Under the pieces are notes generated by a model. The model was not told the DNA's origin. It did not search any database and saw nothing but the letters and a program-made list of their open reading frames with translations. A stretch of 16,757 nucleotides of DNA from NCBI GenBank assembly GCA_021780585.1, contig JAJXYM010000232.1, forward strand, positions 1 through 16,757, in the 5' to 3' direction. Source of the DNA: Deltaproteobacteria bacterium (GTDB lineage: Bacteria > Desulfobacterota > Binatia > Binatales > Binataceae). Positions within the stretch are counted from its first letter, which is position 1; every line of letters begins with the position of its first letter. The position numbers and the translations under genes are program-made. This document shows positions 1-16,757 of the stretch, piece after piece.

Positions 1-69
1 GAGCGATTGAACGATAACGGCGCAAATCGCAAAATCGCGGATGAAGTTGACTCAAATCGCGCGCGACGC

Positions 70-2106: not shown

Positions 2107-2168
2107 TCGGGCGTCATACGTATGCGAATCGAGCGGCTGCCGGCGGCGCTCCAGACGCCGGAACAAAA

Positions 2169-2535
2169 ATGGCAATGATATTTCATCTGGCAGGGCGGGC
2201 TGAATGGGAAGCGGCGCGCGCGGCCGGAAGTTATGCGCCGGCGTCGCTCGATCGCGAGGGCTTTATCCATTGCTCGACGCGCGCGCAACTTGCCGCGACG
2301 GCCAACGCGTGGTTTCGCGGACGGCGCGATCTGATCGTTCTCCGTATCGACGAGGCGCGCCTCGACGCTCCCCTCCGCTACGAGGCGCCGAAAGCGCCCG
2401 GCGACGCGCGCGGCCGAGCGCTTTCCCCATCTGTACGGTCCGCTGAGGCCGGACGCGGTGATCGAGGTCGTGGAATTTCCCTGCGACGCGAACGGCGCCT
2501 TCGAGTTGCCGCCGGCGCTGCGCCCCATGCGATGA
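2169..2535 (+). pseudogene. DUF952 family protein, interrupted by an apparent +1 frameshift near 2400-2416 in the sequence as given.
   Basis: The N-terminal part in frame 0 reads MIFHLAGRAEWEAARAAGSYAPASLDREGFIHCSTRAQLAATANAWFRGRRDLIVLRIDEARLDAPLRYEAP, which is typical of DUF952. The conserved C-terminal motif ERFPHLYGPLRPDAVIEVVEFPCDANGAFELPPALRPMR then continues in frame +1 and ends at TGA 2533-2535. One extra nucleotide in the GC-rich run gacgcgcgcggccgag would explain the shift. Confidence 0.6.
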
Positions 2536-2618
2536 TTCCGCCCGCCCGCGTGGCGCTCGCTCGCGGCATCCCTTACGATTATCCGGCAAATCAATCGTGC
2601 GGGCGTGGTCGGATCACT

Positions 2619-3515
2619 ATGGAAACGCGGCGGCTGGGCAAAACCGGAATGATGGTGAGCGTGATCGGTTTCGGCGCGTCCGAAATCGGCTATCAGAACG
2701 TCGCGCCGCGCACGGTCGAAACGTTGCTCAATTCCGCGCTCGACGCCGGCCTCAACGTGATCGACACCGCCGCCTGTTACGACGCGAGCGAGGAATTGAT
2801 CGGCCGCGCGATCGGCCATCGCCGCAACGAATACTATTTGCTGACCAAATGCGGCCACGCCAAGGGCCTGACCGCGCGCGAGTGGACGCCCGGGATCGTC
2901 GCGATGAGTCTCGCGCGCAGCCTCAAGCGGATGCGCACCGATTACGTCGATCTGCTGCAATTCCATTCGTGCGACGCCGAGACGCTGCGCGACGACGCGC
3001 TGATCGCGGCGCTGGCGCGAACGCGCGAGCAAGGCCTGGCGCGCGCGATCGGTTACAGTGGCGACGGTCCGGCCGCGCTCGCCGCGATCGCGCTGGGCGT
3101 CTTCGACACGCTGCAGATTTCCGTCAATCTCGCCGATCAGGAGGCGCTCGAACGCGCCCTGCCGGAGGCCGCCGCGCGCGACATGGGCGTGATCGCCAAG
3201 CGCCCGATCGCCAACGCGGCGTGGCTCCAGAGCCGCTGGAGCATCCCCGAATACGGACGGCCCTATCGGCGCCGGCTGCGTAAGCTCGACTATCCGGCTT
3301 TGCGCGGCGATCGCGCCGCCACGATCGGCGCGGCGCTCCGCTTCACGCTGGCCGCTCCTGGCGTCCATACCGCGATTATCGGCACCACCAGGCCGTCGCG
3401 ATGGGAAGAAAACGCGGCGTTGCTCAAGGCCGGTCCGATGCCGGCCGGGGAGTTCGCGGCGATCCGCGCGCGCTGGCGCGAAGTCGCCGGCGACGACTGG
3501 GTCGGCCTGCGCTGA
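2619..3515 (+). CDS. Aldo/keto reductase family oxidoreductase.
   Basis: METRRLGKTGMMVSVIGFGASEIG ... LNVIDTAACYD ... ELIGRAIG is the AKR N-terminal signature. The full (beta/alpha)8 AKR fold length follows, about 298 aa. The ATG lies at 2619 in the same frame as the ORF-track 448-aa ORF. That ORF is an artefactual read-through from the DUF952 region. Confidence 0.85.
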   Translation: METRRLGKTGMMVSVIGFGASEIGYQNVAPRTVETLLNSALDAGLNVIDTAACYDASEELIGRAIGHRRNEYYLLTKCGHAKGLTAREWTPGIVAMSLARSLKRMRTDYVDLLQFHSCDAETLRDDALIAALARTREQGLARAIGYSGDGPAALAAIALGVFDTLQISVNLADQEALERALPEAAARDMGVIAKRPIANAAWLQSRWSIPEYGRPYRRRLRKLDYPALRGDRAATIGAALRFTLAAPGVHTAIIGTTRPSRWEENAALLKAGPMPAGEFAAIRARWREVAGDDWVGLR

Positions 3516-3525
3516 CGCGGACCCG

Positions 3526-3541
3526 GCGCGCGATCGCGCGC
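3526..3541. terminator. Perfect 16-bp GC palindrome GCGCGCGATCGCGCGC followed by a T-rich tract (tttcgtctt). This is a candidate intrinsic terminator or protein-binding site just after the AKR stop.
   Basis: The palindrome is read directly from the sequence. It lies 11 bp downstream of the stop at 3513-3515 and is followed by TTTCGTCTT. Confidence 0.35.
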
Positions 3542-3629
3542 TTTCGTCTTGCGGCGGCGCGCGCCATCTCGCTAACGTCCTGACCAACCGGATACGCCGC
3601 GCGCCGGCGTATCGCGCGAGGAGGCTCCG

Positions 3630-4610
3630 ATGAAGTGCAAGGCGATCGTCGTGGCGAAAACCGGCGGCCCGGAAGTGCTCGACTTCAAAGAGGTCGACGT
3701 GCCCGCGCCGGGACCGGGACAGGTCCTCGTGCGGCATCGCGCGATCGGCCTCAACTTCGTCGAAATCTATTTCCGCGCCGGCGTCTATCCGGCGCCGTCG
3801 ATGCCGTTTACGCCGGGCAGCGAGGCCGCCGGCGTGATCGAAGCGCTCGGCCCGGGGGTGACGGAATTCAAGGTCGGCGACCGCGTCGCATACGCCGGCG
3901 GACCGCTCGGCGCGTACGCCGAGGCGCGCGTGATGCCGGCGCGGGTGCTGGTGAAGCTGCCCGACGCGATCGACGAAATCACCGCCGCCGCCACGATGCT
4001 CAAGGGCATGACCGCGCATTTCCTGATCCATGCGACCCGCCCGATCCGGCCCGGCGAAACGATCCTCGTGCATGCCGCCGCCGGCGGCGTCGGGCAGATT
4101 CTCTGCCAATGGGCGGCGCATCTGGGCGCCACCGTGATCGGCACGGTCGGCAGCGACGACAAGGCCCGGCTCGCGGCGGCCCACGGATGCGCCCATACGA
4201 TCGTTTACAGCCGCGAGGATTTCGTCGCCCGCGTCAAGGAGATCACGGGCGGCGCGCTGGTCCCGGTGGTCTACGATTCGGTCGGCGAGGCGACCTTCAT
4301 GAAGTCGCTCGATTGTCTCAGTCCGCGCGGTATGATGGTCAGCTACGGGCAGGCATCGGGAATCGTGCCGCCGTTCAGCGTCAATCTCCTGAGCGCCAAA
4401 GGCTCCCTCTACCTGACCCGCCCGACGCTCCAGACCTACACCGCCAAACGCGAGGAACTGGTCGAACGCGCGCAGGCGTTGTTCGACGCGCTGGCGCGCG
4501 GCGTGGTGCGATGCGCGGCGCCCCGCCGTTTCGCGTTGGCCGACGCCGCGGCGGCCCATCGCGCGCTCGGCGAGCGCCAGACCACGGGATCGAACGTGCT
4601 CATTCCCTGA
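3630..4610 (+). CDS. qor: NADPH:quinone oxidoreductase (zeta-crystallin family, MDR superfamily).
   Basis: The 326-aa protein matches E. coli Qor end to end as recalled (GGPEVL ... AIGLNFVEIYFRAGVYP ... HAAAGGVGQILCQWA ... VYDSVG ... SLDCL ... GSLYLTRPTLQTY ... GSNVLIP). A strong SD GAGGAGG lies 6-8 nt upstream of the ATG at 3630. Confidence 0.93.
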   Translation: MKCKAIVVAKTGGPEVLDFKEVDVPAPGPGQVLVRHRAIGLNFVEIYFRAGVYPAPSMPFTPGSEAAGVIEALGPGVTEFKVGDRVAYAGGPLGAYAEARVMPARVLVKLPDAIDEITAAATMLKGMTAHFLIHATRPIRPGETILVHAAAGGVGQILCQWAAHLGATVIGTVGSDDKARLAAAHGCAHTIVYSREDFVARVKEITGGALVPVVYDSVGEATFMKSLDCLSPRGMMVSYGQASGIVPPFSVNLLSAKGSLYLTRPTLQTYTAKREELVERAQALFDALARGVVRCAAPRRFALADAAAAHRALGERQTTGSNVLIP

Positions 4611-4691
4611 ACGATTCGGAAGCGGTCGCCTCGTCCGCGCCGCCCGGCTAGCGTGATCGAGGCGCGATCGATCGTTGATCGCGCGGGCGCG

Positions 4692-5894
4692 ATGAAAATT
4701 CTGGTCTTCAATTGCGGCAGCTCGTCGCTCAAATTCGAGCTGATCGAAATTCGCGACGGCGCGGCCGGTCGCGATCGCCTCGCGCGCGGCGTGTTTCAGG
4801 AGATCGGACCGCGCGCGCATGCGACGATGGAATCCGCCGACGGCCGCAAATGCGACGCCGCGGCGCCTGTCGGCAGCCATCGCGAGGCCGCGATTCGCGC
4901 ACTGGAATGGCTCGCCGGCGACGCCGCCACGCCGCGTCCCGACGCGATCGCCCATCGCATCGTCCATGGCGGCGCGAGCGTCAGCGCGCCGACGCTCGCG
5001 AACGACGCGGTGATCGCGGAACTCGAGGCCGCCGCGCGCTTCGCGCCGCTGCATAATCCGCCGGCGATCGAAACGCTCAAGGCGGTGCGCGAAAAATTTC
5101 CCGGTGCGCCGTCGGTGATCGTCGCCGATACCGCGTTCCATCAGACGCTCCCGCCGCACGCCCGCGAATACGCGATTCCGCGCGCGATCGCCGCCCGCCA
5201 CGGAATCCGCCGCTTCGGCTTTCATGGCGTCGGCCATTCGTGGATGCTCGAGCGCTACGCCGAAATCGTCCAAAGGCCTCCGGCCAGCCTCGATCTGATT
5301 ACGCTGCAACTCGGCGCCGGATGCTCGATCGCGGCGATTCAGGCCGGCCGCTCGATCGATACCTCGATGGGGCTGACGCCGCTGGAAGGGCTGATGATGG
5401 CGACGCGCTCGGGCGATCTGGATCCGGCGATCGTGAGCTACCTCGCAACGGCGGAGCGGATTTCGGCCGCCGACGTCGAACGCATCCTGAATTACGAATC
5501 GGGCCTGCGCGGCGTCTCGCAACTCTCCGACGACATGCGCGAGCTGGAGCGCGCGGCGCCGTCGCATCCCGACGCGGCGCTGGCGATCGCAATGTTCCGC
5601 TACCGCGCGCGCAAATATATCGGCGCCTATATGGCCGCGCTCGGCCGCGCCGACGCGATTATCTTCGGCGGCGGAATCGGCGAGAATTCAGCCGCGATCC
5701 GCGCCCGGATCTGCGCCGGACTCGAAACCTTCGGAATCGCTTTCGACGCCGCGCGTAATCAGGCCGCGAGCGGCCGCGAAGCGCGTTTCAGCGCCGACGG
5801 CGCGGCGACGGAACTTTGGGTCGTGCCGCTCGACGAGGAATTTCAGATCGCCCGCGCGACCGCGCGCCTGCTGCGCGGCGAGGCGCCGCGTTAG
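4692..5894 (+). CDS. ackA: Acetate kinase (or acetate/propionate kinase family).
   Basis: MKILVFNCGSSSLKFEL is the canonical acetate kinase N-terminus. Later motifs VHGG, ADTAFHQT, FGFHGVGH and IFGGGIGENS are present. The ORF track starts at a GTG at 4653, but the ATG at 4692 gives the conserved N-terminus. The stop is TAG at 5892-5894. Confidence 0.9.
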   Translation: MKILVFNCGSSSLKFELIEIRDGAAGRDRLARGVFQEIGPRAHATMESADGRKCDAAAPVGSHREAAIRALEWLAGDAATPRPDAIAHRIVHGGASVSAPTLANDAVIAELEAAARFAPLHNPPAIETLKAVREKFPGAPSVIVADTAFHQTLPPHAREYAIPRAIAARHGIRRFGFHGVGHSWMLERYAEIVQRPPASLDLITLQLGAGCSIAAIQAGRSIDTSMGLTPLEGLMMATRSGDLDPAIVSYLATAERISAADVERILNYESGLRGVSQLSDDMRELERAAPSHPDAALAIAMFRYRARKYIGAYMAALGRADAIIFGGGIGENSAAIRARICAGLETFGIAFDAARNQAASGREARFSADGAATELWVVPLDEEFQIARATARLLRGEAPR

Positions 5895-6013
5895 GCGCCC
5901 TCGCGCCCGGACCGTCATGGCCCGCCGACGCGATTGCCGCTCGCCGGAACCGAACGTATCGTGACCGCAAGCCGTGTCCGCTTGGCGCTTGAGCCGTTCC
6001 CGTTGGAGTCACG

Positions 6014-7351
6014 ATGACGCATCTGATCGCCGCACGTTCGCAGATGGCGATGTCGCTCGCCTTCCATATCCTCTTCGCCTGCGTCGGAATCGCGATGCCG
6101 CTGCTGATGATCGTCGCGGAATGGCGCTATCGGCGCACGCGCGACGAGGTCTATCTGCTGCTGGCGCGGCGCTGGGCGATCGGCGCGGCGATCATGTTCG
6201 CGGTCGGCGCGGTCTCGGGCACGGTCCTGTCGTTCGAACTCGGCCTGCTGTGGCCGCATTTCATGGGCTGGGCGGGCGCGATTATCGGCATGCCGTTTTC
6301 GCTCGAAGGCTTCGCCTTTTTTACCGAAGCGATCTTCCTCGGCATTTATATGTACGGATGGGATCGGGTCAGCCCGCGCGCCCATCTGGGAGCCGGCGCG
6401 ATGGTCGCGCTGTCGGGCGTGGTCTCGGGAATTTTCATCGTGATCGCGAACGCGTGGATGAACACGCCGGTCGGCTTTCGCCTGGTCGGCGGCAATCCCG
6501 TCGATATCGATCCGCTGGCGACGCTGACCAATCCCGCCGCGCTCCACGAAACCGTCCATATGACGATCGCGGCATACGCCGCCACCGGCTTCGTCGTTGC
6601 GGGAATCCATGCCGCGATGTGGCTGCGCGATCGCGCGAATTTGTTCCATCGCCGCGCGCTCGCGATCGCCTTCGCGGTCGGCGCGGTCGCCGCGATCCTG
6701 CAGCCGCTCAGCGGCGACGCCTCGGCCCGCGCCGTCGCGCGCCTGCAACCGATCAAAATCGCCGCCTTCGAGGGGCTGTTCGTTACCGGCCCGCATGCTC
6801 CACTCGCGATCGGCGGTATCCCGGACGTCGGCGCGCGCCGCCTGCGCTACGCGATTGAACTGCCCTCGATGCTCAGTATCATGACCTACCATAACCCGGA
6901 CGCGGTGATGCGCGGGCTCGATTCGTTCCCTGAAAACGATTGGCCGAGTCCGCTGATCGCGGTGCATCTCGCCTTTCAAATCATGGTCGGCGCGGGTTTC
7001 GCGATGGCCGCGCTGGCGCTCTGGGGCGCGTGGCTGGCGTGGTGGCGGCGCAATCTTTTCGGCTCGGTATGGTTCATGCGCGCGCTCGCGCTCGCCGCTC
7101 CGCTCGGGCTAATCGCGGTCGAGGCCGGATGGGTGGTGACCGAAGTCGGCCGCCAGCCGTGGATCATTTATGGCGTGATGCGGACGGCGCAGGCGGTTAC
7201 GCCGATGCCCGGTCTGTACATCACCTTTCCCATCTTTTCCCTGCTCTATCTGTTCCTCGGCGTGACGGTGGCCTTCCTGATGTGGCGGCAGGTGATGGCG
7301 AGTCCGACCAGCGCGGAGCTCGCCGCGCTGGCCGCGACGGAGGAACGATGA
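6014..7351 (+). CDS. cydA: Cytochrome bd-type ubiquinol oxidase subunit I (short Q-loop type).
   Basis: The 445-aa polytopic membrane protein shows CydA signatures (MSLAFHILFA ... GWAGAI ... EAGWVVTEVGRQPWIIYGVMRTA). A GGAG SD lies upstream of the ATG at 6014. The stop overlaps the cydB start in an ATGA overlap. Confidence 0.92.
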   Translation: MTHLIAARSQMAMSLAFHILFACVGIAMPLLMIVAEWRYRRTRDEVYLLLARRWAIGAAIMFAVGAVSGTVLSFELGLLWPHFMGWAGAIIGMPFSLEGFAFFTEAIFLGIYMYGWDRVSPRAHLGAGAMVALSGVVSGIFIVIANAWMNTPVGFRLVGGNPVDIDPLATLTNPAALHETVHMTIAAYAATGFVVAGIHAAMWLRDRANLFHRRALAIAFAVGAVAAILQPLSGDASARAVARLQPIKIAAFEGLFVTGPHAPLAIGGIPDVGARRLRYAIELPSMLSIMTYHNPDAVMRGLDSFPENDWPSPLIAVHLAFQIMVGAGFAMAALALWGAWLAWWRRNLFGSVWFMRALALAAPLGLIAVEAGWVVTEVGRQPWIIYGVMRTAQAVTPMPGLYITFPIFSLLYLFLGVTVAFLMWRQVMASPTSAELAALAATEER

Positions 7352-8394
7352 TGCCGTTCGCGCTCTGGTTCGTCGCGGGCGTATTGATTGTCGCGCTGAC
7401 GATCTACGTGCTGACGGGAGGCGCCGATTACGGCGGCGGCGTATGGGACCTGTGCGCCGCCGGCCCGCGCGCCCAAGCCCAGCGCGACCTGATCGCCCAC
7501 GCGATCGGACCGGTATGGGAGGCCGATCACGTATGGCTGATTCTGGTCGTCGTGATTCTCTTCGACGGCTTTCCCCCCGCCTTCGCCCGGATCATGACCG
7601 CGATGCATGTGCCGATCACGCTGATGCTGATCGGCGTGGTCCTGCGCGGCTCCGCCTTCAGCTTTCGCAGCTACGGACTCGGTCAGGATCGCGCGCGGCG
7701 CGAATGGGGCCGGGTCTTCTCGATCGCGAGCCTAATCACGCCAATCCTGCTCGGAATTATTATCGGCGCGATCGCCTCCGGCCGCATCCCGGCCAATCCG
7801 CACGTCCTGCGCGACTTCGTTACGCCGTGGCTGACGCCGTTCTGCTTCGGCGTCGGCGTGTTCACGCTCGCGATTTTCGCCTATCTGGCGGCCACGTATG
7901 CGACCGTCGAAGCCGGCGCAGTCGGCGACCCCGCCCTGGCTGACGATTTCCGCCGCCGCGCGATCGGCGCCGCGCTCGCCGTCGGCGTAATCGCCGGCGT
8001 CGTCCTGACGCTTTCGATTCATGGCGCGCCGCTGATCTGGAACGGCCTGACCCATCGCGGATGGACCTGGCCGATCTTCTGGCTCACCACGATTTTCGCG
8101 CTGGCCGCGCTCTGGGCGCTTTGGACGAGGCGCTTCGCTTTGGCCCGCATCTGCGCGGCCGGCCAGGTCGCATTGATTCTGTGGGGCTGGGCGCTGGCGC
8201 AATTCCCCTATCTGCTCGAACCCGATCTGACGATATTTAACGCCGCCGCGCCGGTCCGAACGCTCGATATTCTCGCCCTCGCGCTGGCGGCGGGAGCCTT
8301 GCTGCTCCTGCCGTCGTATCGCTATTTGCTGATCGTCTTCAAGCGCGATCGGCGCGCCGCCGTCGCCGTCGCCACACCGCCGCCGCGCGATTAG
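7348..8394 (+). CDS. cydB: Cytochrome bd-type ubiquinol oxidase subunit II.
   Basis: MMPFALWFVAGVLIVALTIYVLTGGADYGGGVWDL is the typical CydB start. The protein is about 348 aa and all-membrane. The start at 7348 overlaps the cydA TGA at 7349-7351, with GGAGGAAC just upstream. The 484-aa ORF-track entry beginning at 6940 is an upstream read-through in the same frame. Confidence 0.9.
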   Translation: MMPFALWFVAGVLIVALTIYVLTGGADYGGGVWDLCAAGPRAQAQRDLIAHAIGPVWEADHVWLILVVVILFDGFPPAFARIMTAMHVPITLMLIGVVLRGSAFSFRSYGLGQDRARREWGRVFSIASLITPILLGIIIGAIASGRIPANPHVLRDFVTPWLTPFCFGVGVFTLAIFAYLAATYATVEAGAVGDPALADDFRRRAIGAALAVGVIAGVVLTLSIHGAPLIWNGLTHRGWTWPIFWLTTIFALAALWALWTRRFALARICAAGQVALILWGWALAQFPYLLEPDLTIFNAAAPVRTLDILALALAAGALLLLPSYRYLLIVFKRDRRAAVAVATPPPRD

Positions 8395-8481
8395 CTTTCG
8401 CACCAGACGGCGCGGACAAACCGCCACAAATCGCGCGGCCCACCCGCGCCGCGGTTCGGAAAGCGAAAGGAAATTAAAGTA

Positions 8482-8934
8482 ATGGATGAATTTCCCGATC
8501 TGAGCCGGCTGCTCGAACGCAGCGCCGTCAGCGCCACGCCCGCCGTCGCCGATTCAGTCGGCTATCCGCCCCGGCAGATGACGGCGGAGGAATTCGTCGA
8601 GTTCTGGCGGAGCGTCCGGCTGGTCGCGATGGCGACGGTCGGCGCGCATGGCCAGCCCCATCTCGCCCCGGTTCACGCGACGCTGCAGGGCGCGACGCTC
8701 CGCATGGTCATTTACGACAATGCCGTGCGCCGCGCCGATCTCGCCCGGAATCCGCGCGTCGCCTTCACCACCTGGCGGGCGGACGGCGCGGTCGCGATCG
8801 TCTATGGCCGCGCCCGCGAACTTCCCGACAGCCTGCGGCCGGCCCGTCCCGGCCGTAGCGGCAAGCCGCGCCAGGTGGTCGAAATCGAGGTCAAACTGAC
8901 GCGCGTCTACGCGATGCGCCCGGCATCCGCTTGA
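8482..8934 (+). CDS. Pyridoxamine 5'-phosphate oxidase-like (PNPOx/FMN-binding split-barrel) family protein.
   Basis: The 150-aa product carries motifs typical of the small PNPOx-like family: EEFVEFWRSVRLVAMATVGAHGQPHLAPVH ... RNPRVAFT. The spacing of AAAGGAAA upstream of the ATG at 8482 is long, and an alternative internal start at 8578 cannot be excluded. Confidence 0.6.
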   Translation: MDEFPDLSRLLERSAVSATPAVADSVGYPPRQMTAEEFVEFWRSVRLVAMATVGAHGQPHLAPVHATLQGATLRMVIYDNAVRRADLARNPRVAFTTWRADGAVAIVYGRARELPDSLRPARPGRSGKPRQVVEIEVKLTRVYAMRPASA

Positions 8935-9004
8935 GCCCGCCGCCGCGCCCTCGAGCAGCTTCACTACGCCGTCAGCCGTCCATCGGCGGGCGCGGGGCGC
9001 GCCG

Positions 9005-9037
9005 AAAAAAGCGGCGGCGTCTCGCCGACGCCGCCGC
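9005..9037. terminator. Bidirectional intrinsic-terminator hairpin between convergent genes.
   Basis: Stem GCGGCGGCGTC (9011-9021), loop TCGCC, stem GACGCCGCCGC (9027-9037). An A6 run sits immediately 5' at 9005-9010, which reads as a U-tract after the hairpin for the minus-strand gene ending at 9086. The hairpin lies between the plus-strand PNPOx stop at 8934 and the minus-strand stop at 9086. Confidence 0.6.
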
Positions 9038-9085
9038 TCTCCGCACGATTAACCGCGACTCGATCCGGTTGTGGTCGATGCGGCT

Positions 9086-10288
9086 TTAGTTATCGCCGCC
9101 GCCGTCGCCGGAGCCGCTCGATTGATCCACCGACGTCGCAGCGACGCTGCCGTCCGGCTGGACCACCCCCTCGACGTCGGCCGCGCCCGCGCTCAAGTCG
9201 GCGCAGGTCGCGTTATCGTTGTCGTTGACGCTGATCTGCGTGGTCGGCCCGAGCGTAACCGTGAGCGCGGTATTCGCGTTCCCCGGCGTGAAGGCGAAGC
9301 TCTGCGGGCTCGCGCCGCAATTGATCGCGCCGATCGTCCCCGAGGATTCGAATTGCAGCGCCTGGATGGTCACGCTGTCGGCATTGACCGTGCCGTTCGG
9401 ATTCGCCGCCCCTTCGACTTCGACGCCAGCGCCGTCGGCTAGATCTGCGCAGCTTCCGGGCGTTTCATTGTCCTGATTCTCGATCGAGATTTGCGTGTTG
9501 GCGCTCAGATCGACGGTCACGCTCACGTTGTCCGGATAGCGCGTGACCACGAACGAGGTCGGACAGTCGCTCGACGCGACCGCCCCCTTGAACTCGAGGT
9601 TGTCCGACCCGCCCGCCGATTCGGCGGGATACAGATCCACCTCGGTCGCCGCGAGCGCGCCCGACGAGTTGACGATCGCCTGCGCCGTGACGGGCGTTGC
9701 CGGACTTTGGCCGGCGTAGCTGGCCAGATCGGCGCAGGTGACGATCCGATTGCCGGTCGCGTCGTTCTGGATAATCGTCGCCGACGGATCGAAGCTCATC
9801 GTCTCGTCGCCGGAGCTGGTCGCGACCGTCAGCGTGTTCGGCGTCGCGCCGCAATCGACCGCGGCCAACGCGCCGCTGACCGTGAGGTCCTCCTGCTCAG
9901 CGCTGGCGGTTCCGGCGGTCGGGTCGAGCGCTATCTGATGCAGCGTCAGCCGCGACCCGGCGGGCGCGTTGACCGCAATTTCGCAGCGATTTTTGCCCTG
10001 ACGAATCAGCAGGGTCCGCGGTCCCGCCAGCGCGGCTCCGCGCAAGACGAAGAATCCCGTCTTATGATTCGCCACCACGTGTCGAGCCAAGCCCTTGACG
10101 CCGATCACGACGGCCCCTTTGCCCGGCGTGACCGATCCAGCGATCACGGTGGTTGCCTTGCCCTGGTTTTTCGCCGGTTTTTTGGCCAGCGCCGCCGGCG
10201 TCAGCGTCAACGCCGCCAGCGCGGCGACGGCCGACCCGAAAATCGCGCCGCGCCATCTCCGCGTACTATTGATTTCCAACAAACTCAT
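9086..10288 (-). CDS. Secreted protein with an N-terminal signal peptide and three tandem DUF5666-like repeats of about 100 aa each, two cysteines per repeat.
   Basis: The signal peptide MSLLEINSTRRWRGAIFGSAVAALAALTLTPAALA-KK is preceded by SD GGAGGAGG 8 nt upstream. The ORF-track start 8 codons further up, at 10312, is unlikely. The three repeats share the pattern ...DC(G/P)..P..(F/L).V.......(V/L).V.L...TQIS(I/V).N.DN.T..(C)ADL..GA.VEVEG...P.G(T/S)V.A.SV. The family name DUF5666 is my recollection and is not verified. Confidence 0.75.
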   Translation of the reverse strand: MSLLEINSTRRWRGAIFGSAVAALAALTLTPAALAKKPAKNQGKATTVIAGSVTPGKGAVVIGVKGLARHVVANHKTGFFVLRGAALAGPRTLLIRQGKNRCEIAVNAPAGSRLTLHQIALDPTAGTASAEQEDLTVSGALAAVDCGATPNTLTVATSSGDETMSFDPSATIIQNDATGNRIVTCADLASYAGQSPATPVTAQAIVNSSGALAATEVDLYPAESAGGSDNLEFKGAVASSDCPTSFVVTRYPDNVSVTVDLSANTQISIENQDNETPGSCADLADGAGVEVEGAANPNGTVNADSVTIQALQFESSGTIGAINCGASPQSFAFTPGNANTALTVTLGPTTQISVNDNDNATCADLSAGAADVEGVVQPDGSVAATSVDQSSGSGDGGGDN

Positions 10289-10312
10289 TCCGTGTGCCTC
10301 CTCCACGTGCAT

Positions 10313-10611
10313 CGATTACCCCCCACGCATGGGATCGCACCCAGCGACAGTCACGACATGAGACGCTATTAGTTGTCCGTTTTAGATGGAAGTCATTTTT
10401 TATTGCTTTCCAATTGCGGAATCTTCGCCCGTTCGGTAGCCGCGCCGACGCGCGTTCGCGCGATCCGTCCGCCGCCGCGCCGACCCGCCGCACGCGGCTT
10501 CGCTTTGCCCGGACGCGTCGCGCCGGTAATTTGATGTTCGCGCAAAGACTGCTTCGCCGCCCGGACGATTGTCGGAACCGGCGTTAGCGGCCGGCGCGGA
10601 GGGATGCTGCG
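10313..10611. promoter_or_regulatory. Divergent intergenic region with an AT-rich core, presumed to hold promoters for the two oppositely oriented secreted or membrane repeat-protein genes.
   Basis: The 299-bp gap between divergent starts contains the only AT-rich stretch in the area at about 10360-10430 (ttagttgtccgttttagatggaagtcattttttattgctttccaattgcggaatc). I could not assign a confident -35/-10 pair. Confidence 0.3.
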
Positions 10612-11082
10612 ATGGCTCAGATGACGGGCGGAAAATGGACCTACCTGATGGTGGCGTTGATCGGCGGAATCGCCGGCGGCGCGATCGGCGGCCGATGGCT
10701 CGCGCCGCGTCCCGCGATCGCCGCCGACACGGCGCCGAAATCTCTCGCCGCCCAGGAGATCATGCTGGTCGACGCCCAGGGCCATCCGCACGCCGTGCTG
10801 CGCCTGAATCAAAACTTCGAGCCGGTGATGCAGATGTACGACCATGCCGGCAAGCCGCGCGCCGCGATCGGTTTCGGCAAGGATCAGGACGTCGGCCTGC
10901 TCTTCTCCGACGACACCGGCGCCACGCGCCTGATCATGGGCGTCAGCGGCGACAATATCCCGGCGGTGCGATTGTTCGACGAACATGGCCGCCAGCGCGC
11001 GCTGATCGGCGTCGACAGCCAGGGCGAGGCCGCGCTCGATTTTTACGACAGCAACGGCAAGCTGCTGCGCGAGTTACCCTGA
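10612..11082 (+). CDS. Small membrane-anchored or secreted hypothetical protein with five tandem repeats of about 23 aa (consensus h.h.D..G..R..hGh..dG...).
   Basis: An N-terminal hydrophobic helix (WTYLMVALIGGIAGGAIGG) is followed by the repeats EIMLVDAQGHPHAVLRLN / MQMYDHAGKPRAAIGFGKDQDVG / LLFSDDTGATRLIMGVSGDNIPA / VRLFDEHGRQRALIGVDSQGEAA / LDFYDSNGKLLREL. SD GGAGGG lies 8 nt upstream of the ATG at 10612. Confidence 0.65.
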   Translation: MAQMTGGKWTYLMVALIGGIAGGAIGGRWLAPRPAIAADTAPKSLAAQEIMLVDAQGHPHAVLRLNQNFEPVMQMYDHAGKPRAAIGFGKDQDVGLLFSDDTGATRLIMGVSGDNIPAVRLFDEHGRQRALIGVDSQGEAALDFYDSNGKLLRELP

Positions 11083-11191
11083 ACGCCCGTTTTCCCGTCC
11101 GCCGCGCAAACGCTATGGTGAGACGCCGGCGGCCGACCGGGCCCGGCAAGCGTAAGGCTTACGACGATTTTCCCGAAAATGGTTGACTACG

Positions 11192-13957
11192 ATGAGCAAG
11201 GATAGTTTCAGCACGCGAACGACCCTCAACGTCGGCTCGAAGAGCCACGTTATCCACTCGCTCGAAGCGCTCGCCAAACGCGGCTTCGATCTCGCCCGCC
11301 TGCCGTTTTCGATCAAGGTGCTGCTCGAAAACGTGCTGCGGCGCGAGGACGGGGCCAACGTCACCGCCGACCACGTCGCGGCGCTGGCGCGCTGGAACGG
11401 CGCGCGCGATGGCGATCGCGAATTTTCCTTCATGCCCGCGCGCGTGCTGCTGCAGGATTTCACCGGCGTGCCGGTGGTCGCCGACCTCGCCGTGATGCGT
11501 GACGCGATCCGCCGGCTCGGCGGCGATCCCGCCCGCATCAATCCGCTCCAGCCCGCCGATCTCGTCATCGACCATTCCGTGCAGGTCGATTCCTACGGCC
11601 TGCCGAGCTCCTTCGCGCGCAACGCCGAACTCGAATTCGAGCGTAATCAGGAACGCTACCAGTTCCTGCGCTGGGGCCAGCGCGCGTTCGACAATTTCCG
11701 CGTCGTCCCGCCCGATACCGGCATCGTCCATCAGGTCAATCTCGAATATCTGGCTCCCGTCGTCTTCGTCTCCGCCGCCGGCGAGGCCTATCCCGACAGC
11801 GTCTTCGGCACCGATTCGCATACCACGATGGTCAACGGACTCGGCGTCGTCGGATGGGGCGTGGGCGGAATCGAGGCCGAAGTCGCGATGCTCGGCCGCT
11901 CCAGCCCGATGCTGATTCCGCAGGTGGTCGGGATGCGCCTGAGCGGCGCCCTGCGCCCCGGCGCGACCGCGACCGACCTCGTCCTGACGGTCACGCAGAT
12001 GCTGCGCAAGCAGGGCGTGGTCAACAAGTTCGTGGAATTTTACGGACCAGGAATTGCCCATCTGAGCGTCGCCGACCGCGCCACGATCGGCAACATGTCG
12101 CCCGAATACGGCGCCACGATCGGTTTCTTCCCGGTCGACGACCAGACCCTCGCCTATCTGCGCCTGACCGGCCGTTCCGAGGACCAGGTGCGATTGGTCG
12201 AGGCCTACTGCAAGGCGCAGGGACTCTTCCGCACGGCGGCGTCGCCCGAACCGATCTTCACCGACACGCTCGAACTCGACCTCGGCGCCGTCGAACCGAG
12301 TCTCGCCGGCCCGCGCCGCCCGCAGGATCGGATCACGCTGGCCGCGGCGCGGCGAACCTTTCGCGCCGACCTGGCGAAGGAAGTCGCCAATCACGCTTCG
12401 GCCGATCCGAAAGTCGTCGATCGCTGGATCGCCGAAGGCGGCAATCCCGAGGTCGCCCCGCATGAACGGGTCGCGCCGCCCGCGACCGGGCCGATCGCGA
12501 CGCGCCTCGAAGTCGCAATGGACGGCGAAAAATTCCCGCTCGGCCACGGCGCGATCGTGATCGCCGCGATCACGAGCTGCACCAACACTTCGAATCCCTC
12601 CGTGCTGATCGGCGCTGGATTGCTGGCGAAAAAAGCGGTCGAGCGCGGCCTCACCGTCAAGCCGTGGGTCAAGACCAGCCTTGCGCCGGGGTCCAAGGTC
12701 GTCACCGCCTATCTGAATCGCGCCGGCCTGACGCCGTATCTCGAAAAGCTGCGCTTCAATCTCGTCGGTTACGGATGCACCACCTGTATCGGCAACAGCG
12801 GCCCGGTCGCCGAGCCGATCGCCGGCGCGATCAAACAGGGAAATCTCGTCGCGACGGCGATCCTGAGCGGGAATCGCAATTTCGAAGGCCGCATCAATCC
12901 CGTCGTGCGCTTCAATTATCTCGCCTCGCCGCCGCTGGTGGTGGCCTACGCGATCGCCGGCACGATGGACTTCGACCCGAACGTCGAGCCGCTCGCGCGC
13001 GATTCAAAAGGCGCGCCCGTCTATCTGCGCGAGCTCTGGCCGACCGCGGCCGAAATCGAAGCCGCGATTTCCGCGTCGGTCGATTCCGCGATGTTTCGCG
13101 CGGAATACGGCCAGGTCTTCGAGGGCGACGAGCGCTGGCAGAGCCTGAAAATCCCCGCGGGCAATCTGTTCCAATGGTCGGACGATTCGTCCTACGTCAA
13201 GGCGCCGCCCTTTTTCGACGGCGTCGGACCGCATCCGGCGCCGGTCGGCGACCTCGTCGGCGCGCGCGCGCTCGCGGTCCTCGGCGACAGCGTCACCACC
13301 GATCATATTTCGCCCGCCGGCTCGATCGCGACCGACAGTCCCGCCGGCCGCTACCTGGTCGCCAACGGCGTCCAGCCGAAGGACTTCAATTCCTACGGCG
13401 CGCGCCGCGGGAATCATGAGGTGATGGTGCGCGGGACCTTCGCCAATATCCGGCTCAAGAATCTGCTCGTGCCGGGGGTCGAAGGCGGCGTCACCGCGCA
13501 TCTGCCGGACGGCGCGAAGACGACGATCTATGACGCCGCCGAGCAGTATCGCAAGGAGGGCGTGCCGCTGGTGATTATCGCCGGCAAGGAGTACGGCTCC
13601 GGCTCGTCGCGCGATTGGGCGGCGAAGGGCACGCAACTACTTGGCGTGCGCGCCGTGATCGCCGAGAGCTTCGAGCGGATACATCGCAGCAACCTGGTCG
13701 GGATGGGGGTCTTGGCGCTCGAATTCGTCAACGGCCAGAATCGCGCCAGCCTGGGCCTGACCGGCCGCGAAGTCTATTCGATCGGCGGCCTCACGGACGG
13801 CCTCAAGCCGCGCCAGACGCTCAAGGTGCGCGCCGAGGAAAACGGCAAAGTGACAGAGTTCGACGTGCTGGCGCGAATCGATACGCCCGAGGACGTCGAA
13901 TATATCCGCCACGGCGGCGTATTGCCCTACGTCCTGCGCGAACTGCTCCGCGCCTGA
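11192..13957 (+). CDS. acnA: Aconitate hydratase A (aconitase A).
   Basis: The roughly 921-aa protein aligns with AcnA along its whole length as recalled ([11 protein letters not shown]-type N-terminus here [15 protein letters not shown] ... [24 protein letters not shown] ... [10 protein letters not shown] ... [12 protein letters not shown] ... [10 protein letters not shown]). The ORF track begins at a TTG at 11183. The ATG at 11192 (MSKDSF...) is the more plausible start. The stop is TGA at 13955-13957. Confidence 0.93.
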
Positions 13958-13983
13958 CTAGCGCACGGCCGATCCGACTGGAC

Positions 13984-14133
13984 GTCATGGCCGGGTCTGA
14001 CCCCGGCCATCCAGACCGATGGACCCTCGGGTCACGCCCGAGGGTGACCAAAAAAAAAGCGCCCGAGGGTGGCGGAAAAAAGACGCCCGAGGGTGACGGC
14101 GAGCGCGCCGCGCCGCTGGCTCCGTCATGGCTG
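13984..14133. repeat. Left arm of a long imperfect inverted repeat, built from REP-like hairpins plus a GCCCGAGGGTG/A-run minisatellite.
   Basis: It contains hairpin A (ATGGCCGGG-tctgac-CCCGGCCAT, 13987-14010), hairpin B in inverted orientation (ACCCTCGGG-tcacg-CCCGAGGGT, 14023-14045), GGTCAC-gcccgagg-GTGACC followed by A9 (14050-14058), A6 (14076-14081), then gacggcgagcgcgccgcgccgctggctccgtcatgg. The reverse complement of this segment matches 14621-14857 end to end, apart from a copy-number difference in the internal minisatellite. Confidence 0.85.
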
Positions 14134-14215
14134 GGCTTGACCAACCATCCCGAGAACGTCCCCGAGAACGTCATGGCCGGGCTTGACCAACCATCCCGAG
14201 AACGTCCCCGAGAAC
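14124..14215. repeat. 46-bp tandem duplication (x2) of a degenerate REP unit, gtcatggc(y)gggcttgaccaaccatcccgagaacgtccccgagaac. Each unit contains an internal 12-bp direct repeat cccgagaacgtc x2.
   Basis: The units start at 14124 and 14170 and are near-identical. The second stem half of the hairpin is replaced by CCAACCAT. Confidence 0.85.
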
Positions 14216-14300
14216 GTCATGGCCGGGCTTGACCCGGCCATCCACATCATTCGCACAACCAACCGGCGATCGTCATGGCCGGGCTTGACCCGGCCATCCA
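14216..14300. repeat. Two canonical REP-like hairpins in direct orientation, GTCATGGCCGGG-CTTGA-CCCGGCCATCCA, at 14216-14245 and 14271-14300. The second ends 5 bp from the GIY-YIG stop codon.
   Basis: Both are exact 9-bp stems with a 5-nt loop CTTGA. The same motif recurs 7 or more times in the window. Confidence 0.9.
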
Positions 14301-14305
14301 TGTGA

Positions 14306-14593
14306 CTATGTGAGCCTTTCGTAGAGATCGTCCCAGTGCGGATTGCTGCTCCCGATCAGCGACAGCTTCCACGCACGCGGCCAGTGCTTGAGATTTTTTT
14401 CGCGCTGAATCGCATCTCTGATGTCCTCGTGCCACTCGGTGTGAACCAGCCGTCTTAGGCCATAGCGTTTCGTGAAACCCTCGACCGACCCTTCGCGATG
14501 CTCCCACACGCGGCGCGCAAGGTCGGCGGTCACGCCTACGTAAAGCGTGCCGTTCGGACGATTCGTCATGATGTAGACCCAGCCGCCTGTCAT
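14306..14593 (-). CDS. Small GIY-YIG nuclease family protein (COG2827/YhbQ-YazA-like, 95 aa).
   Basis: The product reads MTGGWVYIMTNRPNGTLYVGVTADLARRVWEHREG ... FTKRYGLRRLVHTEWHEDIRDAIQREKNLKHWPRAWKLSLI. It has the GIY (VYIM) and YIG (LYVGVT) motifs and the conserved Arg, Glu and Asn of the GIY-YIG fold. The ATG is at 14593-14591 and the stop TAG at 14308-14306. The gene is flanked on both sides by REP hairpins. Confidence 0.85.
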   Translation of the reverse strand: MTGGWVYIMTNRPNGTLYVGVTADLARRVWEHREGSVEGFTKRYGLRRLVHTEWHEDIRDAIQREKNLKHWPRAWKLSLIGSSNPHWDDLYERLT

Positions 14594-14594
14594 C

Positions 14595-14618
14595 GCTTCG
14601 ACGGGGCTAGCGAAGCGT
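14595..14618. other. Inverted repeat CGCTTCG-acggggctag-CGAAGCG abutting the GIY-YIG start codon, with no recognisable SD upstream on the minus strand.
   Basis: On the minus strand the 3' arm of the stem ends on the nucleotide before the ATG (…ccccgtCGAAGCG-ATG). This could occlude the ribosome-binding region, and it sits between the gene and the REP at 14621. Confidence 0.4.
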
Positions 14619-14620
14619 GG

Positions 14621-14857
14621 ATGGCCGGGTCAAGCCCGGCCATGACGGAGCCAGAGGCGCGGCGCGCTCGCCGTCACCCTCGGGCGCCCTTTTCCGCCAC
14701 CCTCGGGCGTCCTTTCTGTCACCCTCGGGCGTCTTTTTTCCACCACCCCCCGAGCACCCTTTTTTGTCACCCTCGGGCGTCTTTTTTTGTCACCCTCGGG
14801 CTTGACCCGAGGGTCCATCGGTTGGGATGGCCGGGTCAGGCCCGGCCATGACGGGGA
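14621..14857. repeat. Right arm of the long imperfect inverted repeat, the reverse complement of 13984-14133 with an expanded minisatellite.
   Basis: Hairpin A in opposite orientation (ATGGCCGGG-tcaag-CCCGGCCAT, 14621-14643) is followed by gacggagccagaggcgcggcgcgctcgccgtcaccctcgggcg, which is the reverse complement of 14082-14133 with 1-2 mismatches. Five to six units of the GTCACCCTCGGGCGTCTTTTTT minisatellite follow at 14673-14788, then hairpin B (ACCCTCGGG-CTTGA-CCCGAGGGT, 14792-14814), ccatcggt, and hairpin A with loop tcagg (14827-14849). Confidence 0.85.
14673..14788. repeat. Minisatellite of 22-24-bp units GTCACCCTCGGGCG(T)C + T5-7, with 5-6 copies here against 3 copies (as A-runs) in the left arm.
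   Basis: The units begin at 14673, 14696, 14718, 14742 (degenerate) and 14766. The left-arm counterpart lies at 14029-14081 on the opposite strand, so copy number differs between the arms. Confidence 0.8.
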
Positions 14858-15879
14858 AGGACGTCCGCCGCCGCGGCCATCCGCGCCGGATTCGGCTGCT
14901 CGTGGCCGAGCACCGGATGCGGCCGATAAGGCGCCTCCAGCGCCGCGACTTCCTCCGCCGTCAGCTCGAGCTCAACCGACGCGATAATCTCCTTGAGATG
15001 GTTCGCCTTGGTCGCGCCGACGATCGGCGCGGTCACGCCCGGCGCCTGCAGAATCCATGCGCAAGCCACCTGCGCCGGCGTCGCGCCGCGCTCACGCGCG
15101 ACCTTTTCGGTCGCCTCCGCGATATCGTAGTCGTGCTCCTGATGGTACAGCCCGCGGGCGAAATCGTCCGTGCGCGCCCTGAGCGTCGCCGCGTCTCCGC
15201 CCTCGCGCTTGCGATTCCCGGCCAGAAAGCCGCGCGCCAGCGGACTCCACGGAATCACGCCCACGCCCTGGTCGATACAGAGCGGAATCATCTCGCGCTC
15301 CTCCTCGCGATAGACCAGGTTGTAATGGTTCTGCATCGCGACAAACCGATGCCATCCGCGCTCGCCCGCCGTATGCAGCGCCTTGGAGAACTGCCACGCC
15401 GCCATGCTGCTGGCGCCGAGATAGCGCACCTTGCCATGGCGCACGAGCGTGTCGAGCGCGTCGAGCGTCTCCTCGATCTGAGTCGAATAGTCCCAGCGAT
15501 GGATCTGATACAGGTCGATGTAATCCATCTTGAGGCGGCGCAGGGAGTTTTCGCACGCCTCCATGATATGCTTGCGGCTGAGGCCGCGGCGGTTCGGCCC
15601 CTTCGCCATCGCGCCGTGAACCTTGGTGGCGAGGACGATATCGTCCCGCGACGCCATCTCGCCCAGCCAGCGGCCGGTGATCTCCTCGCTGACGCCGACC
15701 GAATAGACGTCGGCGGTGTCGAAGAAGGTGATTCCCGCTTCCAGCGCGAGCTTGAAATGTTCGCGCGCCTCGTCCGCGCCAACCGTCCATTCGCGCCATT
15801 TCTTGTCGCCGTAACTCATGCATCCGAGGCAGATGCGCGAGACGGTCATGCCGGTATTGCCGAGCCTGGTGTACTGCAT
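14836..15879 (-). CDS. Aldo/keto reductase (YajO/Tas-like NADPH-dependent oxidoreductase). The last codons and the stop codon lie inside a REP hairpin.
   Basis: MQYTRLGNTGMTVSRICLGCMSYG ... ITFFDTADVYS ... the full AKR length of 347 aa. SD AGGAGC lies upstream of the ATG at 15879-15877. The C-terminal codons HGRA* map onto the right half and loop of hairpin A at 14827-14849, and the stop TGA at 14838-14836 sits in the loop TCAGG. Confidence 0.88.
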   Translation of the reverse strand: MQYTRLGNTGMTVSRICLGCMSYGDKKWREWTVGADEAREHFKLALEAGITFFDTADVYSVGVSEEITGRWLGEMASRDDIVLATKVHGAMAKGPNRRGLSRKHIMEACENSLRRLKMDYIDLYQIHRWDYSTQIEETLDALDTLVRHGKVRYLGASSMAAWQFSKALHTAGERGWHRFVAMQNHYNLVYREEEREMIPLCIDQGVGVIPWSPLARGFLAGNRKREGGDAATLRARTDDFARGLYHQEHDYDIAEATEKVARERGATPAQVACAWILQAPGVTAPIVGATKANHLKEIIASVELELTAEEVAALEAPYRPHPVLGHEQPNPARMAAAADVLPRHGRA

Positions 15880-15994
15880 CGTCGCTCCTGTGCGAGTCGC
15901 GTCGTTATGGGCGAATGCGCCGCGTGCTTCGATCGATTGTCGGATTATTCCGAGAAGAAGTTGTCCGCCGCTGGCGCGTTGTCAAGCGTCGCCG

Positions 15995-16215
15995 CAATGG
16001 ATGGCCGGGTCAAGCCCGGCCATGAAGCGCTGCCGTCACCCTCGGGCTTGACCCGAGGGTCCATCGGTCTGGATGGCCGGGTCAAGCCCGGCCATGACGG
16101 TCGCGGACGACGCTCCGCATCGGCCATGACGGTCGCGGACTACGCTCCGCATCGGGCGCGGCCATCGCGCAAACAACGAACGTCATCCTCGGGCTTGACC
16201 CGAGGATCCACGGGC
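15995..16215. repeat. Third REP cluster in the divergent intergenic region between the AKR and tam genes.
   Basis: It contains hairpin A (16001-16023), hairpin B (16035-16067), hairpin A (16073-16095), a 32-bp tandem duplication x2 (gccatgacggtcgcggac(g/t)acgctccgcatcg, units starting at 16091 and 16123), and a third stem variant C ATCCTCGGG-CTTGA-CCCGAGGAT (16185-16207). The module hairpin B+ccatcggtctgg+hairpin A is near-identical to 14789-14853. Confidence 0.85.
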
Positions 16216-16298
16216 GCCGCATTGGCGCCGGCGCTTGTTCGGATGGGACGTGCGCCGTATGCTCGGGCGCGACGCGATCGCGTCCGTGAGTCCGTTCG

Positions 16299-16757
16299 AT
16301 GGCTGATTGGGACCCCGAACTTTATCATCGCTTCCGCCGCTACCGCGCCGAACCGGTCGAATTGATCTTCGCCCGCCTGCGCTTCGCGCGCGGCGCCGAA
16401 GAAAGAATCGTCGATCTCGGCTGCGGCACCGGCGAGCATACGATCGAACTCGCGCGCCGCTCGGGCGGCCACGCCCGCGGCATCGATTCCTCCCCCGCGA
16501 TGATCGACAAAGCCAACGAACTGCGCGCCGCGCTCGACCCGGAATTACGGGCGCGCGTCGCCTTCGTCCGCGAGGATATCCGCGATTTCGCCGCCGAGAG
16601 CGAATACACGATCGTCTTTTCGAACGCCGCTCTGCAATGGCTCGGCGACCATCGCGCGGTGTTGGCCGCCTGCTTCCGCGCCCTGACGCCCGGCGGTGAA
16701 ATGGCGATCCAGATGCCCGCCAATGAGCATGAGACCGCCCAGGCGACCTTGACCGCG
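16299..16757 (+). CDS. tam: Trans-aconitate 2-methyltransferase (5' partial, runs off the window end).
   Basis: A manual translation from the ATG at 16299 gives MADWDPELYHRFRRYRAEPVELIFARLRFARGAEERIVDLGCGTGEHTIELARR ... GIDSSPAMIDKA ... VREDIRDF ... FSNAALQWLGDH ... MAIQMP. This parallels E. coli Tam as recalled (MSDWNPSLYLHF ... DLGCGPGNST ... GIDSSPAMI ... EADI ... FANASLQWLPDH ... LAVQMP). The frame is absent from the ORF track because there is no stop codon within the window. Confidence 0.8.
   Translation, partial: MADWDPELYHRFRRYRAEPVELIFARLRFARGAEERIVDLGCGTGEHTIELARRSGGHARGIDSSPAMIDKANELRAALDPELRARVAFVREDIRDFAAESEYTIVFSNAALQWLGDHRAVLAACFRALTPGGEMAIQMPANEHETAQATLTA

Follow-up and report, generated by a model that had tools for sequence, protein, structure and literature searches.

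The small GIY-YIG nuclease gene lodged between acnA and an aldo/keto reductase (AKR) gene in a 16,757-nt stretch of DNA from a Deltaproteobacteria bacterium of the family Binataceae (Desulfobacterota, Binatia, Binatales; assembly GCA_021780585.1, contig JAJXYM010000232.1, positions 1 to 16,757, the whole of which is called the window below) most probably belongs to the Ssn family of nucleases, and the hairpins that surround it are most probably the cognate repeats of this family (SRM/NTS, or CGTC-tagged repetitive extragenic palindromes, REPs). The probability of this assignment is estimated at roughly 85%. It is based on the homology of the encoded protein with Neisseria Ssn, on the conservation of the residues occupying catalytic positions and on the repeats found on both sides of the gene. 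The partnership between Ssn nucleases and hairpin repeats is already known (PMC11893778), and the locus is a further example of it.

According to Chenal et al. (2025, Nat Commun; PMC11893778), Ssn proteins are single-domain GIY-YIG nucleases of ~94 amino acid residues, the genes of which are flanked by cognate hairpin repeats. In Neisseria, the repeat, known as dRS3 or NTS and with the consensus CGTCATTCCCGCGMAVGCGGGAATCYRG, is bound and cut by the 94-residue SsnA, which acts on single-stranded DNA (ssDNA) only, and solely on the strand in which CGTC precedes the hairpin, with a cut located a few nt 5' of the hairpin. Three bases preceding the palindrome and the C that follows it were found to be critical by mutagenesis, and the residues Y6, Y17 and E64, mutated in the N. 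meningitidis SsnA, are essential. The Ssn homologues (CDD cd10448) are widespread, with at least one motif nearby in 71% of the cases and motifs on both sides in 42%, and an ssDNA-specific cleavage has been reported for four of them. The NTS-ssnA-NTS architecture, its analogy with the IS200/IS605 and REP-associated tyrosine transposase (RAYT) systems and a domestication hypothesis were all published in this same paper in March 2025. The hairpins themselves correspond to an earlier definition by Di Nocera, De Gregorio & Rocco (2013; PMC3733652), in which the CGTC-tagged REPs consist of a CGTC (or TGTC/CCTC) tag, a stem of 8-9 bp starting with AT, a loop of 4-5 nt and a CCA tail. These REPs are mostly alphaproteobacterial, and were said to "lack a dedicated transposase" (PMC3733652).

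The spacer between acnA and the AKR gene, 878 nt in length, contains one credible gene (Table 1). Its 95-residue product possesses a Pfam GIY-YIG domain extending over residues 4-76, and neither another domain nor a Y1_Tnp match was found in the profile search. The reference used for comparison is the ssnA locus of N. gonorrhoeae (L081, NZ_CP119142.1 1880219-1883476), which belongs to a chromosome-sized record of 2.17 Mb listed as a plasmid in PLSDB, and contains 11 NTS copies in 3.2 kb, the gene being flanked by NTS at both ends. In the whole N. gonorrhoeae record, the window protein has only one match, with 52% identity and a tblastn E-value of 2e-21 (the criterion of the paper being E < 1e-10), and the pairwise BLASTP comparison with the translation of the ssnA locus similarly yields 52% identity over 86 residues, with an E-value of 1e-31. 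Residues Y7, Y18 and E65 of the window protein align with identical Neisseria residues, at the places where Y6, Y17 and E64 are expected. The best relatives in the PDB, in which no Ssn structure was found, are the UPF0213 proteins 1zg2 and 1ywl (E-values of 1e-5 and 7e-3), with a score of 29 bits vs 93 bits for the Neisseria Ssn. As a side observation, the ssnA-like gene of the N. gonorrhoeae locus appears frameshifted near its 5' end, reading ATG CAC GGT TTA ... TAA with a conserved frame from position 1501, and possibly represents a pseudogene in this strain.

Two types of hairpins account for the repeats. Hairpin A reads CGTC-ATGGCCGGG-CTTGA-CCCGGCCAT-CCAC and hairpin B reads (C/T)GTC-ACCCTCGGG-CTTGA-CCCGAGGGT-CCAT, so that tag, stem, loop and tail all agree with the definition of the CGTC-tagged REPs. 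Hairpins A and B, together with the variant B', keep GTC immediately 5' of the palindrome and C immediately 3' of it. As ssDNA, the three of them are predicted to fold stably, at -10 to -12 kcal/mol, with values of -11.7 kcal/mol for hairpin A and -11.1 kcal/mol for hairpin B and z-scores of about -5 (-5.3 for A). A perfect inverted pair of 30-nt hairpins A (14271-14300 and 14618-14647) encloses the nuclease gene to form a minimal hairpin-gene-hairpin unit of 377 bp. A fixed-loop pattern missed most of the hairpin copies; with a pattern tolerating gaps of variable length and a finder of hairpins in general, ~11-13 copies were located in two spacers of the 16.7-kb window, none being convincing within the genes. 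The hairpin pattern matches seven real sites in the window and none in 200 shuffled versions of it, and a chance origin of the pattern is therefore excluded. With respect to the distances separating the gene from the nearest repeats, the 5 nt previously given on the stop side are correct, whereas the 27 nt given on the start side apply only if counted from position 14621, the hairpin lying in fact 23 nt from the ATG.

The association between the gene and the hairpins is recurrent. When one genome per species was scanned, 80 related loci (L001-L080) with 83 gene copies were obtained, which encode proteins 68-80% identical to the window protein and belong nearly all to Alphaproteobacteria, distributed among many genera. 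A generic finder of tagged hairpins showed that 55 of the 83 copies have CGTC-type hairpins at 200 nt or less both upstream and downstream of the gene, and only six copies with full flanks are devoid of hairpins on either side. Hairpins are 22.7-fold enriched near the gene, with 8.31/kb at distances up to 100 nt vs 0.366/kb in the remainder of these loci. The preliminary description of this DNA, made from the letters alone, had suggested looking for the same hairpins around the paralogues of the gene in relatives, and had proposed a GIY-YIG/REP partnership analogous to that of the RAYTs; these figures strongly support the proposal, except that its qualification as not described has become outdated since the publication of Chenal et al. 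(2025, PMC11893778). In the recurrent flanking pattern, a GTCAT...CATCCACG hairpin precedes the gene and its reverse complement occurs just past the stop codon. Depending on the locus, the tags point outward, as in the window (34 of the both-sided copies), or inward (11 copies). In the (+,-) loci, a hairpin oriented like the upstream hairpin A of the window is located 18-72 nt upstream of the gene, commonly at 18-23 or 43-49 nt, and the other hairpin occurs 4-71 nt past the stop codon, at 30 nt or less in most of them.

The stems vary from one locus to another, e.g., GGCCGGG, GCCCGGA, GCCCGCA, GGCCCGG, CCCTCGGG and others, and a stem of the B type flanks the gene on both sides in L012. Within a locus, by contrast, both flanks carry the same stem in 31 of 55 cases vs 17.6% for pairs taken across loci. 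This matching of the stems within a locus is the signature of a protein and a cognate site that evolve together. Two side observations were made on the same sample. The class of loci with inward tags is scattered over a rough neighbour-joining tree of the proteins, in which both orientations recur. In addition, ssn is duplicated, as copies or fragments, within 1-2.5 kb in several genomes (L033 3001-4402, L071 2141-3273, L080 581-3285, L056 and L076), flanking hairpins being present around each of them; these are local paralogues or tandem units.

Some results weigh against the assignment to the Ssn family and its repeats. The reference protein is the N. gonorrhoeae orthologue, apparently frameshifted near its 5' end, and not the N. 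meningitidis protein that was assayed. The tags point outward at the window locus vs inward at the Neisseria locus (L081 1363-1800). Moreover, the type A hairpins that flank the gene, with their 9-bp stem (GGCCGGG), fall outside the published SRM pattern HGTCWYN(0-2)YYVSBRHN(0-5)WNVSBRGN(0-2)RNCYNB, because of the sequence and the length of their stem. The same pattern does match three hairpins of the B or B' type (at 14788, 16034 and 16181) vs 0.1 expected. Hairpin A is the commonest stem type among the 80 related loci and, as it escapes the pattern, the published association figures of 71% and 42% may be underestimates for the Alphaproteobacteria.

By homology with the Neisseria SsnA, the window protein would bind hairpin A only in ssDNA, as exposed for example during replication, repair, uptake or transfer. 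Binding would be limited to the strand reading CGTC-stem-loop-stem-C, and a nick would be expected a few nt 5' of the CGTC tag, both the activity and the position of the cut being thus predictions drawn from the Neisseria enzyme. With the two flanking tags pointing away from the gene, the nicks are predicted immediately outside the 377-bp unit, one per strand, whereas the inward tags of Neisseria would place them between the hairpin and the gene.

Table 1. Position of the hairpin repeats, tandem arrays and genes around the ssn-like gene of the window.
Feature	Position	Strand	Remarks
acnA	11183-13957	+	NCBIfam AcnA match
Left-arm outer end	13983-14049		Hairpin A (13983-14013, +) and hairpin B (14020-14049, -), tail to tail; inverted repeats with the right arm
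Left-arm minisatellite, then GC-rich core	14034-14121		TRF 14034-14099; ~2.7 units of 25 bp, made up of half a hairpin B and an A-run
46-bp tandem array, 2.4 copies	14123-14245	+	TRF score 217, 98% matches; degenerate A (14123, 14169) and intact A (14215-14245)
Hairpin A downstream of the gene	14271-14300	+	5 nt past the stop codon; tag outward from the gene
ssn-like gene	14306-14593	-	95-residue single-domain GIY-YIG nuclease; Pfam PF01541, E 8.8e-15
Hairpin A upstream of the gene	14617-14647	-	CGTCATGGCCGGGCTTGACCCGGCCATCCAC on the sense strand of the gene; 23 nt from the ATG; CGTC tag outward
Right-arm GC-rich core and minisatellite	14648-14787		TRF 14671-14801; ~5.7 units of 23 bp, GTCACCCTCGGGCG and a T-run
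Right-arm outer end	14788-14854		Hairpin B (14788-14818, +) and hairpin A (14825-14854, -), tail-to-tail dimer; AKR stop codon inside hairpin A
Aldo/keto reductase (AKR)	14836-15879	-	Pfam PF00248; methyltransferase gene next
Second hairpin cluster	15997-16211		AKR-methyltransferase spacer; no nuclease gene
Second cluster, hairpin A	~15997-16026		Tag degenerate
Second cluster, B+A dimer	16034-16100		Tail to tail
Second cluster, 32-bp tandem repeat	16089-16169		Starts in a half hairpin A
Second cluster, B variant	16181-16211		CGTCATCCTCGGG...

The minimal unit is embedded in a larger structure of about 870 bp, for which the preliminary description of a GIY-YIG gene placed amid inverted hairpin arms was confirmed. 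The left arm (~13983-14150) is collinear with the reverse complement of the right arm (~14617-14854), with identical nucleotides at 153 of the 175 aligned positions (87%). The arms share the same order of elements, as had been noted, and differ mainly by the copy number of a minisatellite: in each of them hairpin A is followed by hairpin B, a minisatellite consisting of half a hairpin B and an A/T run, a GC-rich core and another hairpin A, and the two gaps in the left arm, of 46 and 21 nt, result from the difference in minisatellite copy number. One of the inverted repeats (14077-14142 and 14628-14693) consists of arms of 66 nt with 94% complementarity. The four direct copies of hairpin A that had been reported do exist, at 14123, 14169, 14215 and 14271, separating the left arm from the gene, but the first two are degenerate, with a mutated 3' stem and a predicted ssDNA fold of -3.4 kcal/mol vs -11.7 kcal/mol for the intact copies. 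The 46-bp array which includes them also contains 12-bp repeats, CCCGAGAACGTC, corresponding to the half-stem of a B-type hairpin and the CGTC tag.

The four tandem arrays of the window (14034-14099, 14123-14234, 14671-14801 and 16089-16169, with units of 25, 46/12, 23 and 32 bp, respectively) all start or end in half a hairpin, which suggests that the hairpins may be hot spots for breakage, stalling or slippage. The length of the acnA-AKR spacer also differs among assemblies from the same population (L086-L090), with 855/856 vs 877/878 nt, a difference of approximately one 23-bp unit. In addition, hairpins A and B associate tail to tail in three heterodimers (13983-14049, 14788-14854 and 16034-16100), separated by spacers of ~6 nt (CGGTYK), and the 67-nt dimer has a predicted ssDNA fold of -24.8 kcal/mol. 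These dimers look like the hairpin-gene-hairpin layout deprived of its gene, in a REPIN-like manner. Taken as a whole, the 870-bp structure consists of the same repeats, forming a cluster that resembles a bacterial interspersed mosaic element (BIME) and has undergone an inverted duplication around the gene; it does not represent a separate kind of element. The interpretation of the structure as a miniature inverted-repeat transposable element or transposon is rather doubtful: inverted repeats are present, but no target-site duplication was found either at the boundary of the inner unit (GGCGAT/.../GAGCCA) or at that of the outer composite, and the exact window protein, present in four assemblies, occurs once per assembly and always at the same locus.

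The origin of the unit appears to differ from that of its host. The named relatives of AcnA belong to Candidatus Binataceae (76-85% identity) and place the host in or near this family, whereas the nearest relatives of the ssn gene occur in Alphaproteobacteria (at most 80% identity), with an identical hairpin A. The ssn gene has a GC content of 59% and a GC content at third codon positions (GC3) of 74% vs 66% and 84%, respectively, for the neighbouring genes of the host. Both contrasts suggest that the unit may have been acquired horizontally.

An empty-site comparison, as envisaged in the preliminary description, shows that ssn is not located in the same spacer from one close relative to another. 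In the locus L172, AcnA and AKR are 91.8% and 92.0% identical to their window counterparts and the order acnA, AKR, methyltransferase is kept, but the acnA-AKR spacer (7947-8335, 389 nt) contains hairpins and no ssn, and the same gene spacing downstream of acnA occurs in a second sample (L173). The ssn gene of L172 is instead located in the AKR-methyltransferase spacer (9885-10227), between a B' hairpin on one side and a hairpin A on the other, with 77.9% protein identity and 79.6% DNA identity over the whole, collinear 377-nt unit. The occupancy is thus reversed: the window harbours ssn in the acnA-AKR spacer (13958-14835) and only hairpins in the next one (15880-16300), and L172 exhibits the opposite arrangement. 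Global alignments of the spacers being unreliable within the repeats, only the gene ends and the individual hairpins were equated in this comparison. Among the sampled sequences, the ssn genes of the two Binataceae are mutual closest relatives according to a rough tree. Neither hairpins nor ssn were found in the regions covered for four more distant relatives (48 kb in total), with AcnA 82-85% identical, and the acnA-AKR synteny is lost in the AcnA orthologues at this level of identity. No acnA and no ssn lies close to the AKR homologues identified in JGI metagenomes (80 loci, identity not exceeding 79%); these loci are not syntenic and therefore yield no empty-site information.

Among the related loci, a hairpin-ssn-hairpin unit of ~400 bp shows 92% DNA identity between three loci that are otherwise dissimilar (L001 2817-3345, L002 2903-3429 and L005 2838-3348), found in differently named genomes, namely Magnetospirillum aberrantis and two metagenome-assembled genomes (MAGs), and neither acnA nor AKR occurs beside ssn in any of the 80 related loci. 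Taken together, these comparisons show that the position of the unit turns over between relatives, and horizontal spread is probable. As an independent observation, the core of the unit in L002 is inverted relative to shared outer flanks of ~110 and ~50 nt, and its upstream hairpin is tagged at both ends (CGTC/GACG).

A further step would consist in considering the hairpin-ssn-hairpin unit itself as mobile, the nicks made by Ssn driving both the relocation of the gene and the spread of gene-less dimers, as is thought of RAYTs for the REPINs. This extension, which is compatible with the assignment to the Ssn family, is possible but rather doubtful. The reversed occupancy of the two spacers between relatives at 92% identity (ssn missing from the acnA-AKR spacer in two samples), the neighbours shared with none of the 80 loci, the near-identical units at three dissimilar loci, the contrast between a Binataceae host and alphaproteobacterial ssn relatives, together with the lower GC content of the gene, and the resemblance of the A/B dimers to a gene-less unit all agree with it. 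However, neither a target-site duplication nor a second copy of the exact protein in any assembly was found, and the difference in position would equally be explained by duplication followed by differential loss, or by recombination between repeat clusters. From a mechanistic point of view, the inverted hairpins leave one cleavable site per strand, so that a single-strand excision of the IS200 type does not fit. To our knowledge, no strand-transfer activity or chemistry has been associated with the GIY-YIG fold, the enzymes of which hydrolyse DNA. The still bolder idea of an autonomous GIY-YIG-driven element hopping between repeat clusters, crossing from Alphaproteobacteria to Binatota and spawning gene-less dimers, in which Ssn would be the missing dedicated enzyme of the CGTC-tagged REPs, is similarly tentative. 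No later work on the mobility of Ssn units was found in the literature searched.

Rather than being the substrates of the nuclease, the hairpins could act on RNA or on transcription, serving as terminators, mRNA stabilizers or operators that regulate the gene and its neighbours. The hairpin located 5 nt past the stop codon, and those found at 30 nt or less from it in most of the related loci, would suit such a role. Many REPs are argued to be transcribed and located downstream of genes (Di Nocera et al., PMC3733652), and a regulatory function was at first considered by Chenal et al. (PMC11893778). This explanation is nevertheless improbable: no terminator-like T-tract was found, the promoter and terminator consensus scans found nothing, and no Rfam family was found by a search of the region 13800-16400. 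Furthermore, the Neisseria SsnA does not bind RNA (PMC11893778), and termination needs neither an oriented CGTC tag nor stems matched on both sides of the gene.

It is much less realistic to consider the gene as a classical GIY-YIG homing endonuclease, which would cut double-stranded DNA at an empty site to be copied in by repair. The window protein does show a weak match to the group I intron endonuclease family TIGR01453, below threshold at 23.5 bits for a cutoff of 56, and the occupancy of the site varies between relatives. Yet the protein comprises only 95 residues and lacks any DNA-binding domain, its closest characterized relatives are specific for ssDNA, and the collection of phage genomes searched by tblastn contained no match. 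In addition, hairpins occur intact on both sides of the gene, which implies that no target was disrupted, an argument against homing. Finally, the chance landing of a GIY-YIG gene in an ordinary intergenic REP cluster, for which the same hairpins without the gene in the next spacer might plead, is hardly conceivable in view of the 22.7-fold enrichment of hairpins beside the gene, their recurring orientations and their short distances in 80 loci from many genera.

The surroundings of the unit deserve a few additional remarks. The right-hand neighbour, previously identified as tam, is actually the AKR gene, followed by a methyltransferase gene. The frame of AKR enters hairpin A (14836-14856), so that the repeat supplies both the stop codon and the end of the coding sequence (...PRHGRA); in L172, AKR ends sooner (...MLADVRR), outside the hairpin, which has the opposite orientation there. 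The 23-nt leader separating hairpin A from the ATG of ssn (14594-14616) consists of a small inverted repeat, GCTTCG...CGAAGC, and shows no obvious Shine-Dalgarno sequence. It is partly kept in the Binataceae relative (L172 10173-10196) and different in the alphaproteobacterial units. A search with the PADLOC defence models gave no match.

The Ssn/hairpin partnership is now seen in the Binataceae, a lineage absent from the text of the 2025 paper. The novelty is modest and lies in this new host, in a hairpin with a 9-bp stem beyond the published motif, in an orientation opposite to that of Neisseria and in the comparison of filled and empty sites at two adjacent spacers. The locus also bears on a question left by the 2025 paper, i.e., whether the NTS-ssn-NTS unit is a present or former mobile element that spreads the CGTC-type REPs, and the relevant evidence consists of the differing spacers in close relatives, the hairpin dimers that resemble a gene-less unit and the near-identical units in dissimilar loci. 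Moreover, each pair of an Ssn protein and its hairpin represents a potential sequence-specific ssDNA cutter for biotechnology.

Compared with the known systems, the window protein shares with UPF0213/YhbQ a similar size and a stand-alone GIY-YIG fold, but resembles these proteins much more weakly than it does the Neisseria Ssn; we know of no hairpin-repeat association reported for them. The RAYT/REPIN systems (Nunvar 2010; Bertels & Rainey 2011; Ton-Hoang 2012) are alike in that a small nuclease gene lies between inverted copies of a hairpin repeat scattered over the genome, with inverted hairpin dimers that resemble gene-less derivatives. However, RAYTs are HUH/Y1 transposases associated with a GTAG tag, and because of its GIY-YIG fold and CGTC tag the window system does not belong to the RAYT/REPIN family, even though it would work like one. 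The CGTC-tagged REPs (PMC3733652), some families of which possess a 9-bp stem and a 5-nt loop, resemble the window repeats by their extragenic location, by the occurrence of heterodimers and by a mainly alphaproteobacterial distribution, similar to that of the relatives of the unit. They differ in that no dedicated transposase was seen for them, whereas the repeats of the window, like those studied by Chenal et al., accompany the gene of a GIY-YIG nuclease. The closest likeness is offered by the Ssn/SRM system (PMC11893778), with a single-domain GIY-YIG protein of 94-95 residues and conserved residues at the Tyr, Tyr and Glu catalytic positions. The layout of the repeat is also common to both (CGTC tag, stem with AT as its first bases, short loop, palindrome followed by a C), as are the position of the gene between inverted copies and the presence of more copies in nearby spacers. 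The two systems differ by the stem, of 9 bp in the window (GGCCGGG or CCTCGGG) vs TTCCCGCG in Neisseria, and by the host, the Neisseria system having been studied biochemically and the clade of the window, represented here by a Binataceae MAG, being known from sequence.

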